A stretch of DNA of 64,000 bases, from sequence record MW630116.1; one strand, given 5' to 3'. The DNA is from Escherichia phage vB_EcoM-ZQ3. Position 1 is the stretch's first letter. Every line of letters starts with the position of its first letter. Below, in pieces: positions 5,709 to 36,559 of the stretch. Under the pieces are notes generated by a model. The model worked only from the letters and a program-made list of their open reading frames with translations, made no database searches and was not told the DNA's origin. A program made the position numbers and the translations under genes.

Positions 5709-5714
5709 TTTTCA

Positions 5715-7163
5715 TTAAGCTGTAGGAAGTTCAACCCATGCACCGTCTTTGCGAACATAGAATTTACCGTCTGAAGGAGCATCTTCAATATATCCAGCTT
5801 CCTTAAGAGTTTGGATTTCAGCTTCTGCGGCGGCCAAATCAGTTTCAAGAGTAGCAATTCTAGAAGTTAAACCATTAATTGTCGTATCGTGACTTTTAAC
5901 TGTAGGCAATATACCACGTTCTTCAACAGTCGAACCATTTGGGTTGGTGCCGTTTATAAGAGTATTTAATGTGTTTACAGAACCCTTAATCCCTGTGGTA
6001 TTAGTCCCAACATCAGTTTGAATGTTCTGAATGTCATTACTCATCTCACCGATAGATCCTTCAAGCGCTCGAGTACGATAAAGCAAAGAGCCGGCTGGTT
6101 CCGGTTTCCCACCTGAAGCGTCAACACCAACTACGTTATTTAACCATGACACATTAAAACGCAATCCTGACGAAGAATCAGAGCCGACAACAGTGTTCAA
6201 TGCTCCGATAGCATCAGTATTGAGTTTAATACGTCCTTGGATTGTAGTAGGCAAATCATCGGTGCCAATGGCAGTTTCTACTGTAGTCAAACGAGGTTTA
6301 ATACCACCTGATTGATTGAGCTCAAGATTAATGTCGTTTATTGCTGAACTATTCGCATTAGTTGTAGTAATAATAGAAGTCGTATTAGGATACCCAATAG
6401 ACTGTTTAATGCCATCTAAGTCAGCATTTTGACGCGACAAAGTTAAATCAATACCGGAAAGACGACTAAATACTGGAGTAGTGAAAGAAGTGCGAGGTCC
6501 CATTTCTTCGCGTAAGTGTTCGACTTCATTAGTTAAAGAGCCGACGTCAGAATCAGCAAATTTAGTTTCTAGATCAGTTAATCGAACACCGTGGTCAACA
6601 ATCACGGAGCTATTAGTCATAATACGGCGTTTCATACCAGTGCTATCATTTCCTGGAGTAGGAACCCCATTAATATCTTGACCAGTATATTGTCCTAATT
6701 CATTTTTAATCCAAAGCAGGTCGTTACGAACGGTTCTATAAACTGAATCTGTTTCCTGATTATAAACACCAATATCATCAGTATTCGCATCAATATGTTC
6801 ATTCAAATCATTCAATTCACTAGCATGGGTTTGAACTGTGACTTTAATGACATCAATATCTTGGGTGTTCTGACCAATCTGTGCAAGTGCTTCGACGTCC
6901 CCGGAAACATCTAAAATACCTTGAATAACTTTTATATCTTCATTGGCTGTATTCAAAGAAGATGCTATAGTTTTAATATTAGTATCTAACGCTTCTACGT
7001 TACGTTGAACTTCAACAATAGGACGGTTCATTACACCTTCAGAACCGTATTTTGTATCAGCACCGGTAATTTCTTCGTCGTTTTTAATCCATTCAATACG
7101 ACTCTGACCCGCGTCTGGCGGGCCGTCAACATATGGTAAATCTACCAGAGTTATATCAGCCAT
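5715..7163 (-). CDS. wac: Fibritin (whisker protein, wac)
   Basis: 482 aa coiled-coil protein; conserved N-terminus and C-terminal foldon-like GYIEDAPSDGKFYVRKDGAWVEL. Confidence 0.88.
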   Translation of the reverse strand: MADITLVDLPYVDGPPDAGQSRIEWIKNDEEITGADTKYGSEGVMNRPIVEVQRNVEALDTNIKTIASSLNTANEDIKVIQGILDVSGDVEALAQIGQNTQDIDVIKVTVQTHASELNDLNEHIDANTDDIGVYNQETDSVYRTVRNDLLWIKNELGQYTGQDINGVPTPGNDSTGMKRRIMTNSSVIVDHGVRLTDLETKFADSDVGSLTNEVEHLREEMGPRTSFTTPVFSRLSGIDLTLSRQNADLDGIKQSIGYPNTTSIITTTNANSSAINDINLELNQSGGIKPRLTTVETAIGTDDLPTTIQGRIKLNTDAIGALNTVVGSDSSSGLRFNVSWLNNVVGVDASGGKPEPAGSLLYRTRALEGSIGEMSNDIQNIQTDVGTNTTGIKGSVNTLNTLINGTNPNGSTVEERGILPTVKSHDTTINGLTSRIATLETDLAAAEAEIQTLKEAGYIEDAPSDGKFYVRKDGAWVELPTA

Positions 7164-27919: not shown

Positions 27920-27994
27920 GGCCCTGTAGCTCAATGGGAGAGCTGTCAGCTCATAACTGATAGGTAGCTGGATCGAAACCAGCCAGGGTCACCA
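27920..27994 (+). tRNA. tRNA with CAU anticodon (Met, or Ile if lysidine-modified), CCA encoded
   Basis: Manual cloverleaf: acceptor GGCCCTG/CAGGGTC, D-stem GCTC/GAGC, anticodon loop CTCATAA, T-arm GCTGG-ATCGAAA-CCAGC, discriminator A, CCA. Confidence 0.8.
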
Positions 27995-28000
27995 AACAAA

Positions 28001-28072
28001 TGGTGCATCGTATAAAGGTTATTACGGGGAGCTGTTAACTCCTTTATCTTGGTTCGAGTCCAAGTGCGCCAG
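28001..28072 (+). tRNA. tRNA-Asn (GUU anticodon), no encoded CCA
   Basis: Acceptor TGGTGCA/TGCGCCA, anticodon stem GGGAG/CTCCT with loop CTGTTAA, T-arm CTTGG-TTCGAGT-CCAAG; 6 nt after the previous tRNA. Confidence 0.7.
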
Positions 28073-28146: not shown

Positions 28147-28812
28147 ATGAGCATTTGTAAACATTGTAATATGGAATTTGATATTTCTAATAAACCTAAA
28201 GGATGGATGGCTAACCACACTAGATGGTGTAAATCCAACCCTAAATTGGAATTGTATAAAGAAAGTTCTAAATCAGCCATTGCAGCAATGAATAAAGCAC
28301 GTATAGCTTCAGGTAATTTAAACCAGTATGTTGTATCTAAAAAGACTGGTGTCCCTGTAGTAATTTCGGAAGAGACTAGACAAAAATTGTCAGCCGCTTC
28401 ATTAGGTAGAGAACACTCTGAGGAATCTAGAATAAAAATATCTAATGCTCGGAAAAAATGGTTGAATGAAAACCCTGATAAACATCCTTGGAAGAAAAAT
28501 ACAAAATTTAAATCTGTGCCTTGTGAATTTTTGAAATCTAAATTAATAGAAAACGGAATTTCATTTATTGAAGAATACCAACCGGTTAAAAACCGAGCGT
28601 ATTGCACGGATATTGCTTTAATAGATAAAAAGATTATTATTGAAGTTAATGGAAACCAACATTACTCCAATCCTAAGAAAAAGATTTTGGCCCCTTATTA
28701 TAAAGAACGCCATGATATTATAAAATCATTAGGATGGGAAATATATGAACTTCATTATGCTGAAGTTTATAAAGAAGATATTGTAAATAATTTAATTGCC
28801 TCTATAGTGTAA
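28147..28812 (+). CDS. Putative free-standing homing endonuclease (N-terminal Cys/His motif, NUMOD3-like repeats, C-terminal Vsr/DUF559-like nuclease motif)
   Basis: CKHCN...HTRWC; ETRQKLSAASLGREHSEESRIKISNARKKW; C-terminal D..IIIEVNGNQHY..RHD...LGWEI; sits between tRNA genes and overlaps tRNA-Arg by 15 nt; no GIY-YIG motif. Confidence 0.6.
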   Translation: MSICKHCNMEFDISNKPKGWMANHTRWCKSNPKLELYKESSKSAIAAMNKARIASGNLNQYVVSKKTGVPVVISEETRQKLSAASLGREHSEESRIKISNARKKWLNENPDKHPWKKNTKFKSVPCEFLKSKLIENGISFIEEYQPVKNRAYCTDIALIDKKIIIEVNGNQHYSNPKKKILAPYYKERHDIIKSLGWEIYELHYAEVYKEDIVNNLIASIV

Positions 28813-28873
28813 TGGATAGCATATAATCGTTCTAAGGTTAATGGTGAGAGTTCAAATCTTTCTAGAGGCACCA
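28798..28873 (+). tRNA. tRNA-Arg (UCU anticodon), CCA encoded
   Basis: Acceptor GCCTCTA/TAGAGGC, D-stem GTGT/GCAT, anticodon loop GTTCTAA, T-arm GAGAG-TTCAAAT-CTTTC, discriminator A plus CCA. Confidence 0.8.
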
Positions 28874-31854: not shown

Positions 31855-32277
31855 ATGCGAAACCAAAATAATGATATTGACTCAATGTTCGAAGAGTTCC
31901 GAAATAAGGTAAATCCACCTACGTCTTTAGTTGATTCATTACGATATGTTGCAACTGGACGTAAATGGTACTGGTCGTCTTCTTATGAGACAACTGAATA
32001 TGCAAATAACCGAAAATCTTTATTAGCCCCAGGTATTATGATTCATGATATCGGAGCTATTGCTAAACTAGTTGCGGACCATGATATTAGATTCACTGAT
32101 TTCGTTGCTCCTACGTGGTCTGTTTGTTGTTTAAACACTGAATGGGACTATATCAGTGAACGCTCTGAAGATTATTATGGTTTTAGAGATAAGCTCTTAA
32201 GGTCTAACATGTTTTATATCGATACTGAAGTTCTAGTCGATAATAAAATATTACTTTACGTTAATCGTCGATTCTGA
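31855..32277 (+). CDS. Hypothetical protein
   Basis: 140 aa from ATG after AGGAG. Confidence 0.5.
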   Translation: MRNQNNDIDSMFEEFRNKVNPPTSLVDSLRYVATGRKWYWSSSYETTEYANNRKSLLAPGIMIHDIGAIAKLVADHDIRFTDFVAPTWSVCCLNTEWDYISERSEDYYGFRDKLLRSNMFYIDTEVLVDNKILLYVNRRF

Positions 32278-32417
32278 AACTATGTATGAAGGCAAGCCTT
32301 TGCTTAAAAGAGTTGATGCTTTAAGTGCTATTGATGCGCTTTATGAAACCATGGTTGTTAGTCCTAATTTCACTAACAATTTAATCCTTGAGCAATTTAT
32401 TATGGAATGTAGAGAAT

Positions 32418-32813
32418 ATGTCAAAGCCAACCCTATACATGCCAATTAAGCCCTGGGCATACGAATACAAACGTAAATTAATCCCAAACGAAGTACTATT
32501 TGGCCCTATTTTAGCTTTAGCGTTTTTAATCTTTATGATTATAGGAGCTGTTTTAGATTCCAATAAAGTTATATCGTCTGATGCAGCGTTTTCATTAATG
32601 TTCGTCGCACCACTTATTGTACCATTTTTATTAATGCCTATTAATTGGGCAGGATATTGGCACCAAGGCCGTCATCACAGAGCTCGAGTTCGTGAGTGGA
32701 AAGTTCAGTGCGCAAAAGCCCAAGCTCAGTATGATGAAGCTGTTAAAAAGTATGAATACGAAGAAGCTATGGAATTCGTTAAGGAAATAAGATGCAAAAG
32801 CCTCAACTCTTAA
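32418..32813 (+). CDS. Predicted membrane protein
   Basis: 132 aa with two hydrophobic segments. Confidence 0.5.
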   Translation: MSKPTLYMPIKPWAYEYKRKLIPNEVLFGPILALAFLIFMIIGAVLDSNKVISSDAAFSLMFVAPLIVPFLLMPINWAGYWHQGRHHRARVREWKVQCAKAQAQYDEAVKKYEYEEAMEFVKEIRCKSLNS

Positions 32814-33043
32814 CCGTATGGCCGTCTCTTGGTGAGAACATTCTAATTTTTATTATGAGTATTGGCATGGGATTTGCCTTTGGATTAGTTGGATTTCTTA
32901 TTGACGGCGTTGTGTTAGGATTTATAGGGAACACTGGTGGATTCACAGACCAATGGCAGGACCTAAGATACACCCAAGCCTTTGCATCTATCGCATCATT
33001 TTGTACTGTAAGTCTATTTTTACTACGATTTTATAAACCATAA
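32792..33043 (+). CDS. Predicted membrane protein
   Basis: 83 aa, hydrophobic; overlaps the upstream gene. Confidence 0.45.
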   Translation: MQKPQLLTVWPSLGENILIFIMSIGMGFAFGLVGFLIDGVVLGFIGNTGGFTDQWQDLRYTQAFASIASFCTVSLFLLRFYKP

Positions 33044-33148
33044 CAAGAAAAATAAAAAGGTTTACGCTTCTCAAATGATTAGTTATAATGAACTCCTAGC
33101 TAGACGTGAAAATGAAACAATAGAAAACTTTATTAAGGAATGTAGAAA

Positions 33149-33454
33149 ATGAGTAAGATTATTGAAATTAAAGTACCAGAGTTTAATGATGCTAAATCCG
33201 CTTCAGATGCAATTTATAAACTTCTGAATCAAGCTGAACGTATCGAAGAAGAAGCAACAAAGATCGCAGACCAATATGCCGTATCATTTTCTGTAGGTGA
33301 TTATGGTAGTGGTCGTACTTATTATCCTAAGGGTGAAATTGTATCCCAGTGGATGAAAGATGAAATTGAAAATAATGGTGGTGATGTTAAACGTGAAGGT
33401 AATGGTTACGTTATTACTGAAGGTGCTTGGGTTTCGTCTTCTTCGATGTGCTAA
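33149..33454 (+). CDS. Small protein, member 1 of a tandem paralogous triplet (C-terminal GAWVSSSSMC)
   Basis: 101 aa; shares the helical N-terminus and C-terminal G-W-[VI]-[SA]-S-S-x-x-C tail with the next two ORFs. Confidence 0.55.
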   Translation: MSKIIEIKVPEFNDAKSASDAIYKLLNQAERIEEEATKIADQYAVSFSVGDYGSGRTYYPKGEIVSQWMKDEIENNGGDVKREGNGYVITEGAWVSSSSMC

Positions 33455-33463
33455 GGAATCATT

Positions 33464-33736
33464 ATGTCTAAAGAACAAACCGAACTGGCTGAAGCCGTAG
33501 CAAAAATCTATGCAGCTATTGAGGCTGCCAAAGAAATTGCTGATAAACAAAACACAACATTCGACTTGTATCCGGCTTATGGTATGGGTGGAACCTATCA
33601 TTCACCCGGACAACTTAAAGCCGATCTTGAACGTTGTACAAAAAACGGCTATGCTGAATGGGCTGACGTTTACCAATACGACTACAACCTGAGCCTCGAA
33701 ACTGGTGGTTGGATTGCATCTTCTCATACTTGCTAA
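33464..33736 (+). CDS. Small protein, member 2 of the triplet (C-terminal GGWIASSHTC)
   Basis: 90 aa; similar intergenic spacer gctaaggaa..atg. Confidence 0.55.
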   Translation: MSKEQTELAEAVAKIYAAIEAAKEIADKQNTTFDLYPAYGMGGTYHSPGQLKADLERCTKNGYAEWADVYQYDYNLSLETGGWIASSHTC

Positions 33737-33745
33737 GGAAACCAT

Positions 33746-33943
33746 ATGTCTCGTGAATTAGATTGTGCTGTACGTACCGCAGTAGCTGCTCTGGAAAACC
33801 TGTTCCAAATTGCAACAGAAGAACGCGAAGAAGTTACATTGTGGATTGAAGATAACGCAGGTCTGAATCTCCAGGACGCGATCTCATTATCCAATAATAG
33901 CATTACTGTTCAAGGCTGGGTATCATCTAGTTATTCTTGCTAA
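33746..33943 (+). CDS. Small protein, member 3 of the triplet (C-terminal QGWVSSSYSC)
   Basis: 65 aa. Confidence 0.55.
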   Translation: MSRELDCAVRTAVAALENLFQIATEEREEVTLWIEDNAGLNLQDAISLSNNSITVQGWVSSSYSC

Positions 33944-34005
33944 AACAGTTTACAACAAGATAGGGCTATGTTATAGTAGTCCTATCAAATTAAATGGAGT
34001 CCACA

Positions 34006-34245
34006 ATGATTTATTACGAAAGTATCGGAACCAAAGTGGTTGGTAAAACCATTACTCGTGAAAAGTTTGCAAAGATATTCGATATGCGTTATAAAAAATC
34101 TGAACACAAAGGCATCCGATTCGAAGATGCACATTGTACAATTTGCCCTTATAATGAAGATATAAATGGTACAATCGTTCCATTGGTAGAGGCTTCACAT
34201 GACGACCTCTGGGATGAATATAATATCGCATGTCGCGAAATTTAA
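34006..34245 (+). CDS. Hypothetical protein
   Basis: ATGGAG...ATG arrangement: the first ATG supplies GGAG as SD for the second; 79 aa. Confidence 0.45.
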   Translation: MIYYESIGTKVVGKTITREKFAKIFDMRYKKSEHKGIRFEDAHCTICPYNEDINGTIVPLVEASHDDLWDEYNIACREI

Positions 34246-34270
34246 GTAATCTAAATTCGAGGAAATTATT

Positions 34271-35227
34271 ATGATGTTAGTTATTGGTTCTCGTGCACTT
34301 CACTATCACGGTCTTATTGATTCTAACGCTATCAAAAATAGTGACTGGGACTTTATTGCAGACCAAGGTTCTTGGAATGCATTCAAAAATCAAATGATGG
34401 GTGTATATGTTCATCAAGATAACCCTGATGTCCAAGTTTTCAAATGCTTCCATAACGGACGCGAAACTCATTTTGAAGCATATATTGTTCCGGCAATCAC
34501 TAATGTCCGTGAACTAGTCGGTGAACTCACTCCTGAAGATTTCACGTCTTCTTATGACCTTTTAAAATACGCCAAGAAAAATTTGACTAAAGACCGTTTG
34601 AACGGGTTTTACTGGGCAACTCCTGAGATGTGCCTTGCAATTAAGATGTCTCATCGTTTCAAGAAAAATAATCCATTCTTTTTAAAGACTATGAACCATA
34701 TTCAGTATCTTCGTGGTAAAGGTGTTAAACTGAATGATGAACTTACTGAAATTATGCTGAAACGTCAGAAAGAAACCTTGAACTATGCTCACCCAGTTCT
34801 TGACACTTCTAAAAGTGCGTTCTTTAAAGATGACATCTATACATATGACCATGATACTATTCATGAAGCCATTGCACTAACAGACCGTCCAGCATATACA
34901 TTTTATATGAAAGACGGTTCTGAAGTCATGACCTCACGCGAGAAGTTCGAATCGTTACCAGAAATGGTCAAATTGGCCGGTGTATATGAAGAATCATGTG
35001 TACTAGCATTAGAACGTTCTCAGATTCCTAATGGCTTTGAAATCCATCCTCGTGATAGTTTTATGATGGCATTAGAAAAGGTCTGTACTTCAATCACATC
35101 AGGCTGGTTCCGTGAGTATGCCTGGGAGAACTACAGCAAAGTAGTAAGTATGTACCAAAGCTTAGGACATGATGATTACGTCAAACGTTTCAAACAAAAT
35201 TTCCATATGGTAAAACCTTTCAAATAA
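34271..35227 (+). CDS. Hypothetical protein, possible nucleotidyltransferase fold (weak)
   Basis: 318 aa; N-terminal IGSRAL...SDWDF loosely fits the G[GS]...D-x-D signature but with longer spacing than usual. Confidence 0.45.
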   Translation: MMLVIGSRALHYHGLIDSNAIKNSDWDFIADQGSWNAFKNQMMGVYVHQDNPDVQVFKCFHNGRETHFEAYIVPAITNVRELVGELTPEDFTSSYDLLKYAKKNLTKDRLNGFYWATPEMCLAIKMSHRFKKNNPFFLKTMNHIQYLRGKGVKLNDELTEIMLKRQKETLNYAHPVLDTSKSAFFKDDIYTYDHDTIHEAIALTDRPAYTFYMKDGSEVMTSREKFESLPEMVKLAGVYEESCVLALERSQIPNGFEIHPRDSFMMALEKVCTSITSGWFREYAWENYSKVVSMYQSLGHDDYVKRFKQNFHMVKPFK

Positions 35228-35306
35228 TTTCACCAAACTGTTTACAAGGTCTGTAGTTGTTGATACTATAGACCTATCAAAACAAATGAGTGAATGGAGA
35301 TACAAA

Positions 35307-35507
35307 ATGACTACTTTGAATAAACGTTTCGGTAAAGCTAAACCTGGCTGTGCAGCAGAACGTCGTTACATTTTCGCTCAGTTAGAAGATGTAGAGTATC
35401 AGATTAATCAAGTTCACATTACTGGCATCGAGCCTATGTGTGGCCTTGAAGCTCTTCGTGAAGTTCGTGACGGGTATCGTCGTGATATCGAAGAAATGTC
35501 AAAATAA
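35307..35507 (+). CDS. Hypothetical protein
   Basis: 66 aa from the second ATG of an ATGGAG...ATG arrangement. Confidence 0.45.
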   Translation: MTTLNKRFGKAKPGCAAERRYIFAQLEDVEYQINQVHITGIEPMCGLEALREVRDGYRRDIEEMSK

Positions 35508-35565
35508 GTGTACAAACTGATAGGGCTATGTTATAGTAGTCCTATTAAAACATGAGGAGAATAAT

Positions 35566-35871
35566 ATGAAATTAACAGAAACCAACCGAATTGGCCTTTT
35601 AACGATACTTACATCACCTTTTTATGCTGTGCTTTCTGTTGCAGTATTACAAAAGGCCTATGGCATGGACGGTGTTCCTGGTTGTGTATTTTTATCACCG
35701 TTTTTGTTATTAGTTGGTGCTCTGTTATTATACGCGACAACAGGTTTCGACCATAATGTTTGGGTCAAGTTTAAACGTAGATTAACTGAAGAAGAACACG
35801 CTGAAGCTCGTAAAAAAGCTATTGAATCTACCAATCTAGAAAATTTCATTAAAGAATGTCGAGGAAAATAA
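35566..35871 (+). CDS. Predicted membrane protein ending in the NFIKECR module
   Basis: 101 aa with two hydrophobic helices; C-terminal ...LENFIKECRGK. Confidence 0.5.
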   Translation: MKLTETNRIGLLTILTSPFYAVLSVAVLQKAYGMDGVPGCVFLSPFLLLVGALLLYATTGFDHNVWVKFKRRLTEEEHAEARKKAIESTNLENFIKECRGK

Positions 35872-35872
35872 T

Positions 35873-36559
35873 ATGAATAGTTCTAAAGTGTTTAATAGTC
35901 AAGCTCGTGCAGTAGGTGGTTTTGCTCATGCGATTAAAAATGACCAGATTAAAAACGAGCCTATGTTCTTCAACTGTAGTTTAGAATTTGCTTATAATAA
36001 CGGTGGTCCTATTACTCGCAGCTTCATCATGAACTTGCCTGATGATTGGAACACCGACCAGGTTGTATTTGATTCACGGGTCCACATGCTGATGCCTGGT
36101 TGGTACCCTGCTATCCCGGGTTATCACCATGATGATGTACCACGCCCGGATATTCCGGTTGGTCAACACTTTATTACTGCAGGACAACCTGATTATGACA
36201 ATCCTCGCTATTTGTCTGAACATATTCTTGGTCTTGTTAACGCTGATGTGTGTCCTACTCATTTTGCAACAGGAACTGCAGAGTTCAGTCAGATTCCTGA
36301 TGGCGAACTTATCTATCGCCAGTGGCACAAAGAAGTCCTCGAAAAAATTGAAAAAGGTGAACTAGAGAAATGGGAAGCTCCAGATCGTACTCTTCTTCAG
36401 TTTGATTGGCAAACATGGCACACTGGTTCTCGTGCAATTAGTAATGGATGGCGTTGGTTCGGACGTGTATCTCGTAATACAGACCGAGTTAAAAAGATTA
36501 CCAATGAAATTCGTGTCAATGCTCAAGTTTATCTGGAATTCCCTATGGAAGGCTGGTAA
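35873..36559 (+). CDS. Hypothetical protein
   Basis: 228 aa; His/Asp-rich segment (HHDDVP); no family assigned. Confidence 0.5.
   Translation: MNSSKVFNSQARAVGGFAHAIKNDQIKNEPMFFNCSLEFAYNNGGPITRSFIMNLPDDWNTDQVVFDSRVHMLMPGWYPAIPGYHHDDVPRPDIPVGQHFITAGQPDYDNPRYLSEHILGLVNADVCPTHFATGTAEFSQIPDGELIYRQWHKEVLEKIEKGELEKWEAPDRTLLQFDWQTWHTGSRAISNGWRWFGRVSRNTDRVKKITNEIRVNAQVYLEFPMEGW

Follow-up and report, generated by a model that had tools for sequence, protein, structure and literature searches.

Three consecutive small open reading frames (ORF-A, ORF-B, and ORF-C) of Escherichia phage vB_EcoM-ZQ3 end in a common Trp...Ser-Ser...Cys tail, and they appear to belong to a large family, restricted to phages, of small acidic early proteins whose members would act with a nucleotidyltransferase (NTase) encoded downstream. 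They were examined in a stretch of 64,000 nucleotides (nt) of this phage (sequence record MW630116.1), which is referred to as the window hereafter. The genes and tails in question are as follows (aa, amino acids).

33149–33454, + strand: ORF-A, 101 aa; 'GDYGxGRTYYP' subtype, ortholog of RB69ORF139c (phrog_899, E 1.9e-23; tblastn, 391 phage records)
33428–33451, + strand: tail of ORF-A, W-V-S-S-S-S-M-C; the ORF ends ...EGAWVSSSSMC
33464–33736, + strand: ORF-B, 90 aa; canonical 'AYGMGGTY' subtype, ortholog of RB69ORF137c (placed by tblastn)
33710–33733, + strand: tail of ORF-B, W-I-A-S-S-H-T-C; the ORF ends ...TGGWIASSHTC
33746–33943, + strand: ORF-C, 65 aa; short subtype without the YG-G motif (phrog_4882), ortholog of RB69ORF136c
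33917–33940, + strand: tail of ORF-C, W-V-S-S-S-Y-S-C; the ORF ends ...VQGWVSSSYSC
34271–35227, + strand: NTase gene, 318 aa; DUF7277 and DUF7275, minimal pol-beta-type NTase with a conserved helical C-terminal domain

The small proteins and their invariant tail

In agreement with the first-pass annotation, which had been made from the sequence alone, the sequence and the ORF list contain three consecutive ORFs with a common ending, and TAA directly follows the terminal Cys codon in each of them. When the whole window was scanned in six frames, 3 of the 374 ORFs of at least 50 aa, namely, ORF-A, ORF-B, and ORF-C, were found to carry W-x-[SAT]-S-x-x-x-C at the extreme C-terminus as a tail; thus, its occurrence there is not due to chance. 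The intergenic spacers, which had also been described as alike, are indeed so: those of A/B and B/C both consist of 9 nt (TGC TAA GGA Atc att ATG and TGC TAA GGA Aac cat ATG, respectively). The explanation is trivial, because a conserved Cys codon is followed by a stop codon that overlaps the Shine-Dalgarno sequence AAGGA. As far as can be read from the sequence, this overlap is a translational-coupling layout. Orthologs of each ORF were found in 250–390 phage records, and synonymous codon differences exceed non-synonymous ones in all three ORFs when compared with two relatives; therefore, they are real genes. In the annotation of phage vB_EcoM_SA79RD (SA79RD hereafter), the three ORFs are hypothetical and are described as similar to RB69ORF139c and RB69ORF136c.

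The mutual relationship among the three proteins is uneven. The pairwise BLASTP values (A/B, 1e-4; A/C, 2e-4; B/C, 3e-4) are marginal, and the signal comes mostly from the tail. Alignments of each subtype were then built from database relatives and compared profile against profile (hhalign). The A-type and B-type profiles matched with E 3e-13 and a probability of 98% after removal of the last nine residues; judged by these profiles, ORF-A and ORF-B are true paralogs even without the tail. For the C-type against the B-type profile, the E value was 3.5e-7 with the tail and 0.012 without it, so that the kinship of ORF-C to the other two beyond the tail is only plausible and does not reach significance. 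Thus, the earlier designation of a paralogous triplet stands for ORF-A and ORF-B, while for ORF-C it can be kept as a plausible kinship at most. The first two proteins share an N-terminal helix ending in ...AExIADxxxxxFxF, followed by (A/D)YG(M/x)G(G/R)TY, whereas ORF-C is without the YG-G motif. Intermediate forms, in which the N-terminal helix and the tail are kept and the YG-G motif is gone, were found in other phages. ORF-C may be either a strongly reduced relative or a convergent helix-plus-tail form.

A profile search of a 5.8-billion-protein collection yielded 114 proteins, 102 of which end in W-x-x-S-[SGTA]-x-x-C. When 1.84 billion cluster representatives (clusters at 50% identity) were searched exhaustively with HMMER, the family was found to comprise 1,027 clusters at E ≤ 1e-3, of which 421 reach E ≤ 1e-10. 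The best true representatives end exactly at the Cys in 124 cases among 126, the other two having one extra residue; one residue beyond the Cys was also present in about 7% of the first 115 profile matches. The tail logo, drawn from 226 distinct members, gave the consensus [ED][ED]-G-G(79%)-W(100%)-[VQI]-S(71%, else A or P)-S(100%)-S(97%)-x-x-C(100%). When numbered from the terminal Cys(0), Trp(-7), Ser(-4), and Cys(0) are thus conserved in all members and Ser(-3) in 97%, which confirms the earlier proposal that the extreme C-terminus is a conserved and meaningful element. All three ORFs of the window fit G-W-x-[SAP]-S-S-x-x-C as a terminal motif, apart from the residue before the Trp, which is Ala in ORF-A. 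The members of this sample have a median pI of 4.5 and a median length of 89 aa, and the terminal Cys is the sole Cys in 130 of them. The linker ahead of the tail is acidic and variable in both length and sequence, with an extra W-x-[ST]-S in 17% of the members. All named sources of the family are phages or phage-sized contigs. Two top HMMER matches, giant repeat proteins of 2,289 and 4,549 aa, lack both motifs and were discarded as spurious.

The family had been called unrecognised, and this view holds: no significant match for ORF-A, ORF-B, or ORF-C was found in Pfam, NCBIfam, or PADLOC, and PDB sequence searches with single sequences and profiles gave no relative of the small family. The proteins of the window are clear members of phrog_899 and phrog_4882 (small proteins), of phrog_2141 (NTase), and of DUF7277/DUF7275; the three PHROG families are all annotated as 'unknown function', and these labels record neither the tail nor the pairing. 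Literature searches on the DUF names, the RB69 ORF names, the motif, the PHROG and Pfam identifiers, and phage NTase/tRNA repair returned nothing on the family. Hence, the small family, its tail, and its pairing with DUF7277/DUF7275 proteins appear to be absent from the libraries and literature searched. Several weak candidates were rejected: Peptidase_S78_2 and E217_gp32 for ORF-A were below the cut-off, PDB matches to designed helical proteins were compositional, and a match to Phi92_gp137 was non-significant.

The first-pass annotation had suggested structure prediction, and an AlphaFold2 model was built for ORF-B only, from a 75-sequence alignment. It gave a confident folded domain (pLDDT 93.3, pTM 0.79) with a helix at residues 3–29, strands at 32–35 and 43–46 flanking the YGMGG turn, helices at 48–60 and 68–71, a strand at 81–85 (GGWIA), and a final helical turn at 86–89 (SSHT), after which only Cys90 follows. 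The secondary structure implies that Ser(-4) and Cys(0) would lie one helical turn apart. Because Gly-Trp is located in a predicted beta-strand, this part of the tail motif is structural. The tail may still be a shared processing, modification, or targeting signal, as had been suggested, but the idea of a pure signal on diverged bodies is retained only in part: the tail is conserved, but the bodies of ORF-A and ORF-B are homologous, and Gly-Trp belongs to a predicted strand. A BFVD structure search with the fold of the small protein found uncharacterised family members only. One of the BFVD entries that align to the fold, A0A142IFN2 (Pseudomonas phage KIL5, 276 aa), may represent fused tandem paralogs, one tail of which would then be internal, or a mis-annotation.

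Deviating members were also observed. The one at positions 5709–5954 of locus L050 ends in W-V-Q-S-S-C, in which the distance from Ser-Ser to Cys is two residues shorter, and also has an internal W-N-S-S-S-C; protein P0078 has two tail-like units in tandem. The tail thus behaves as a short, repeatable module. The ORF139c of RB69 itself (P0002) has 71 aa and ends before the tail, and the B copy is frameshifted in one Mosigvirus record, phage mar005P1 (P0067). It follows that individual paralogs are dispensable in laboratory or natural strains.

Pairing with a nucleotidyltransferase

At every related locus fetched, a gene of approximately 300–350 aa was found just downstream of the small genes. 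In the window, the NTase gene starts at 34271, after the end of ORF-C at 33943, on the same strand. When the contigs of six divergent small-family proteins were looked up, a DUF7277/DUF7275 gene was located 0–4 genes downstream in all six, and the remaining neighbours differed wholly (DNA polymerase/RecA/DnaB; Rnl1 and PNKP; DNA ligase and RNA ligase; others). The same pairing occurs on unrelated backbones with other neighbours that all differ, namely, in T4-like phages, phAPEC8, Otagovirus phiPsa347, Menderavirus, Acinetobacter phage Berthold, and metagenomic phages whose replication modules are different, and it is present with inverted gene order in Stenotrophomonas phage Moby.

A less biased sample was provided by 80 IMG/VR loci that were retrieved via the NTase, not via the small proteins. 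ORFs with the motif were found at 73 of these loci: one at 25 loci, two at 22, three at 11, and four at 15. Among the 162 motif ORFs, 160 are on the same strand as the NTase and upstream of it. The distance from the nearest motif ORF to the start of the NTase match has a median of 436 nt and a maximum of 1,725 nt, and a single motif ORF was found more than 3.5 kb from the NTase in about 1 Mb searched. One of the seven loci without a motif ORF has the shortened W-V-Q-S-S-C variant, which brings the pairing to 74 loci. These synteny counts are strong evidence that the small genes and the NTase are functionally linked, though not obligatorily so, and the two kinds of protein probably work together.

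The 318-aa protein matches DUF7277 at residues 1–101 (E 9.6e-28) and DUF7275 at residues 120–305 (E 7.5e-79). No other Pfam match was found at E ≤ 0.1, AbiEii/DUF1814 and RlaP being among the families not matched, and searches of PDB sequences and PADLOC gave none. The protein has the minimal pol-beta NTase fold with the motif hG[GS]...D-x-[DE], and its fold table lists the MenT1 toxin (10.1), ANT(2'') (8.8), TglT/MenT3 (8.6), MenT4 (7.9), TM1012 (7.7), and LnuA (7.2). Residue conservation was examined in 67 close and 11 distant homologs. Gly6, Ser7, Asp25, and Asp27 were found to be invariant in all of them, and the invariants of the helical domain are K125, S127, H128, K139, H194-D195-x-x-H198, E240-E241, and E248-R249. 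From these data, the protein is apparently an active NTase of the MenT fold with an intact catalytic motif. Some depositors have labelled the Acinetobacter ortholog 'putative nucleotidyltransferase'. Cys272 (in KVCTSITSGWFRE) is invariant in all partner-associated enzymes and is replaced by Ile in three diverged NTases (ClubL, Atuin, and K470) without small partners nearby; this correlation is a weak lead, since it is confounded by phylogeny. Cys243 was also considered as a partner of the tail Cys, but several partner-associated enzymes have Tyr or Gln in its place, and it was rejected.

The actinophage and vibriophage homologs were at one point taken to consist of the C-terminal domain only; this was rejected, because their alignment retains G-S...D-x-D in a shortened head. 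Highly diverged DUF7275 NTases occur in actinophages, a vibriophage, and DSS3_VP1; these enzymes have no W..SS..C partners and adjoin another small-protein family (L023, 3621–4720; L020, 3887–4797; L021, 3991–4356; L022, 4217–4612). This family often occurs as two or three tandem paralogs, with conserved GGEGQGD and Y-x-S-W-D-G...EV-P motifs. It may be an alternative partner family with an OB-fold-like structure.

In unrelated phages, genes of the RNA-repair type are repeatedly found no more than a few kb from the DUF7275 NTase: Rnl1, PNKP, Rnl2, PF09414 RNA ligase, and calcineurin-like phosphoesterase (L009, 1–2478; L011, 7055–7369; L022, 265–1810; L013, 6540–7250). Arrays of tRNA genes also lie near or around it in unrelated phages (tRNA clusters of L020 and L023). 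These neighbours hint at an RNA or tRNA-end substrate, as for the MenT toxins and RlaP. The RlaP repair NTase is described in PMC7824862, and RlaP and the CCA-adding NTases of phage RNA-repair cassettes resemble the present enzyme in being phage-encoded pol-beta NTases. However, the phage NTase is not a Pfam RlaP member at the above threshold, only its genomic context resembles such cassettes, and neither RlaP nor the CCA enzymes are known to have a small partner with such a tail.

Megablast with positions 32000–36000 retrieved 318 phage records, the best of which are Mosigvirus genomes with 95–97% identity. By this likeness, the window is that of a Mosigvirus, an RB69-like T4-type phage whose relatives infect E. 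coli and Shigella. In SA79RD, the triplet is located in an accessory stretch between the e.3-like and e.2-like genes. Two promoter-like sites flank the triplet in the window.

33061–33089, + strand: T4-early/sigma-70-like promoter site, (G)TTTACG-17-TATAAT, 10/12 matches, 60 nt upstream of ORF-A; a consensus match only
33949–33977, + strand: second early-type promoter-like site, (G)TTTACA-17-TATAGT, directly after ORF-C and preceding an 83-aa gene and the NTase gene

The site matching 33949–33977 is annotated as a rho-independent terminator in a relative. The two sites, which are pattern matches only, suggest that the triplet and NTase units are both expressed early. The 83-aa ORF between the triplet and the NTase gene (33994–34245; phrog_3723, unknown function) contains H-C-x-x-C. 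It is seemingly outside the module, because different small genes occupy that position in other phages.

Possible roles of the tail

We tentatively prefer, with somewhat less than even confidence, the view that the small acidic proteins engage the NTase non-covalently via the tail, as regulatory or pseudo-substrate partners. The presence of a small upstream protein beside a minimal NTase gives the pair a resemblance to known toxin-antitoxin and NTase-substrate pairs. The closest precedent, for which reason this view is favoured, is MenA1-MenT1: MenA1, a 68-aa helical protein encoded upstream, binds across the MenT1 active site and triggers inactivation (PMC10435456, PMC11375011). In the phage proteins, a long N-terminal helix is predicted to be combined with a small beta-sheet whose last strand bears the invariant Trp, and a one-turn C-terminal helix would separate Ser(-4) by one turn from the terminal Cys and its free carboxylate. 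The tail would be the element that engages the NTase, most likely by docking non-covalently at or near the active site, and the docked proteins would inhibit or re-direct the enzyme; the 1–4 paralogs per phage could then provide different regulatory or specificity states. What we infer here is that the proteins physically contact the NTase, that the tail is involved, and which way the enzyme is regulated. As regards the enzyme, the MenT-fold NTase is a candidate reader or writer of the tail. A tail that stays invariant over about 1,000 clusters next to a freely varying linker fits a docking element, and the members with a residue beyond the Cys argue against a chemistry that needs the alpha-carboxylate of the Cys itself.

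Several observations weigh against this preference. A classical antitoxin is expected as a single copy, whereas 1–4 paralogs occur here. The promoter/terminator-like site and the unrelated 83-aa gene separate the triplet from the NTase gene, so that the two are not obligatorily co-transcribed, and six of the 80 IMG/VR NTase loci have no detectable small partner nearby. The two strictly invariant adjacent Ser residues and the Cys may resemble a chemical site more than a docking peg, and the likeness of the small protein to antitoxin folds (Phd/YefM) is below any reliable threshold. In addition, the NTase lies outside MenT/AbiEii by sequence, without a Pfam match, and neither MenA1-MenT1 nor the MenAT/AbiE systems show sequence kinship with it (AbiEii/DUF1814). 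It has the canonical D-x-D and not the [ST]-x-D phospho-acceptor of MenT: where MenT1 has T39-x-D41 (PMC10435456), the phage enzyme has D25 in all 67 + 11 sequences, the equivalence being one of motif. The phage NTase also differs from MenT in its much larger and highly conserved C-terminal domain (DUF7275), and MenA1, the C-terminus of which is dispensable, has neither the beta-sheet nor the invariant C-terminal tail of the small proteins. Finally, the phage pair has 1–4 paralogs per enzyme and belongs to lytic phages, whereas MenA1-MenT1 belongs to bacterial chromosomes.

As the main alternative, the tail may be a covalent acceptor, onto which the NTase transfers nucleoside monophosphate (NMP) or phosphate at Ser(-4)/Ser(-3) or the Cys thiol; we regard this as possible but doubtful. 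The modified tail would then be the active or storage form of the protein, in parallel with MNT, which poly-AMPylates HEPN, and GlnD, which uridylylates PII. Such a role fits the chemistry of the NTase fold and the multiple paralogs, and HEPN-MNT (type VII toxin-antitoxin) and GlnD-PII are also pairs of a minimal NTase and a small protein modifiable on a hydroxyl side chain; the second conserved domain of the phage NTase recalls the transferase/removing-enzyme layout of GlnD. However, the acceptor in those pairs is Tyr, whereas the phage candidates are Ser or Cys, and no HEPN, PII, or HD-domain Pfam signature was found in the small proteins or the 318-aa neighbour. Acceptor sites usually allow Ser/Thr exchange, which the tail does not, the G-W part of the motif is structural in the ORF-B model, and, to our knowledge, there is no precedent for a phage NTase that modifies small proteins of the phage itself, which also counts against this role. 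It is rather improbable that the NTase nucleotidylylates or activates the Ser-Ser pair and that, with the DUF7275 domain and the Cys, an NMP-Ser adduct or a Ser-Cys thioether-type staple results. Another alternative is a precursor like those of ribosomally synthesized and post-translationally modified peptides (RiPPs): the S-S-x-x-C core would be dehydrated and cyclised to a lanthionine or aminovinyl-cysteine (AviCys)-type ring, with the N-terminal NTase domain activating Ser and the C-terminal domain acting as a lyase or cyclase. The Ser-rich stretch with its C-terminal Cys is indeed like the epidermin-type precursors, since Ser at -3/-4 followed by a C-terminal Cys has the spacing of lanthionine/AviCys rings, and the partner is a two-domain protein with many invariant His, Asp, Glu, and Cys residues. 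Nevertheless, this is very unlikely: RiPP enzymes are absent, the protein body is a conserved folded domain, and some family members extend one residue past the Cys. No LanB/M/KC/L, LanC, or LanD-type Pfam domain was found among the neighbours in the window or at nine metagenomic loci. In place of a short unstructured leader and a hypervariable core, the intracellular early phage genes encode a folded, conserved body of 60–90 aa without a leader, and the supposed core is the most conserved part.

It is also unlikely, though conceivable, that the small proteins are independent host-directed effectors for anti-defence or host take-over, in which case the linkage to the NTase would reflect co-regulation or the joint mobility of an accessory cassette, and the tail would be a structural cap, a metal ligand, or a host-protein-binding motif. 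This would accord with the location of the genes in the e.2-e.3 accessory region, a hyperplastic part of T4-like genomes that is rich in small early genes, with known anti-defence genes such as vs.4 nearby, with the early-type promoter-like sites, and with the acidity of the proteins, which is like that of many DNA- or RNA-mimic inhibitors. The dispensability of the genes, as seen in the tail-less ORF139c of RB69 and the frameshifted B copy, and the six NTase loci without partners point in the same direction. Hitch-hiking, however, leaves unexplained why only this pair keeps its order and orientation across unrelated phage families, and no small-family gene without an NTase was found among the six contig look-ups. 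As for chance ORFs or annotation artefacts with a coincidental ending, the probability is practically negligible: small size alone speaks for them, and they are refuted by the tail count in the window, the 1,027 clusters, the orthologs in hundreds of phages, the Shine-Dalgarno sequences with coupling, and the confident model of ORF-B.

Sequenced phages that carry the family number in the hundreds; their hosts are Escherichia, Klebsiella, Enterobacter, Aeromonas, Acinetobacter, Pseudomonas, and Stenotrophomonas, and many of these phages are therapy candidates. This very large family is without a name, a Pfam entry, or a publication. The tie between an invariant terminal Trp...Ser-Ser...Cys and an active-looking NTase of the MenT/AbiEii fold provides a new enzyme-partner hypothesis that is cheaply testable. 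In hosts, NTases of this fold are toxins directed against phages, and their targets are tRNA 3′ ends. Taken with the RNA ligase, PNKP, and tRNA neighbours, this leads to the notion that the module may be a counter-defence or translation-control device. If the tail were covalently modified, this would be a new kind of post-translational modification, which lytic phages introduce into early proteins of their own, and the modified tails could possibly serve as protein-linked nucleotide decoys or mimics of tRNA 3′ ends against tRNA-targeting immunity.

Observations around the triplet

Upstream of ORF-A, the region 32792–33043 has a 1-nt insertion (around 33013) relative to SA79RD, namely, an additional A in CTGTAAGTC. 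Owing to the resulting frameshift, the e.3-like membrane-protein gene encodes 83 aa compared with 119 aa. The shortened gene could be a real pseudogene or the result of a sequencing error. In the relatives, the stop codon of the e.3-like gene overlaps the start codon of ORF-A (ATGA), and the promoter-like site at 33061–33089 consequently lies inside the coding sequence there. A 'sulfurtransferase' label found under a BLAST match belongs to this upstream gene in one record and was not taken to concern the small proteins.

Genes for three tRNAs (Met, Asn, and Arg) were identified by ARAGORN at 27920–27994, 28001–28072, and 28798–28873, respectively, approximately 5 kb upstream of the triplet/NTase region. 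SA79RD is annotated with adjacent Met and Arg tRNAs only, so that the tRNA region differs between these close relatives.

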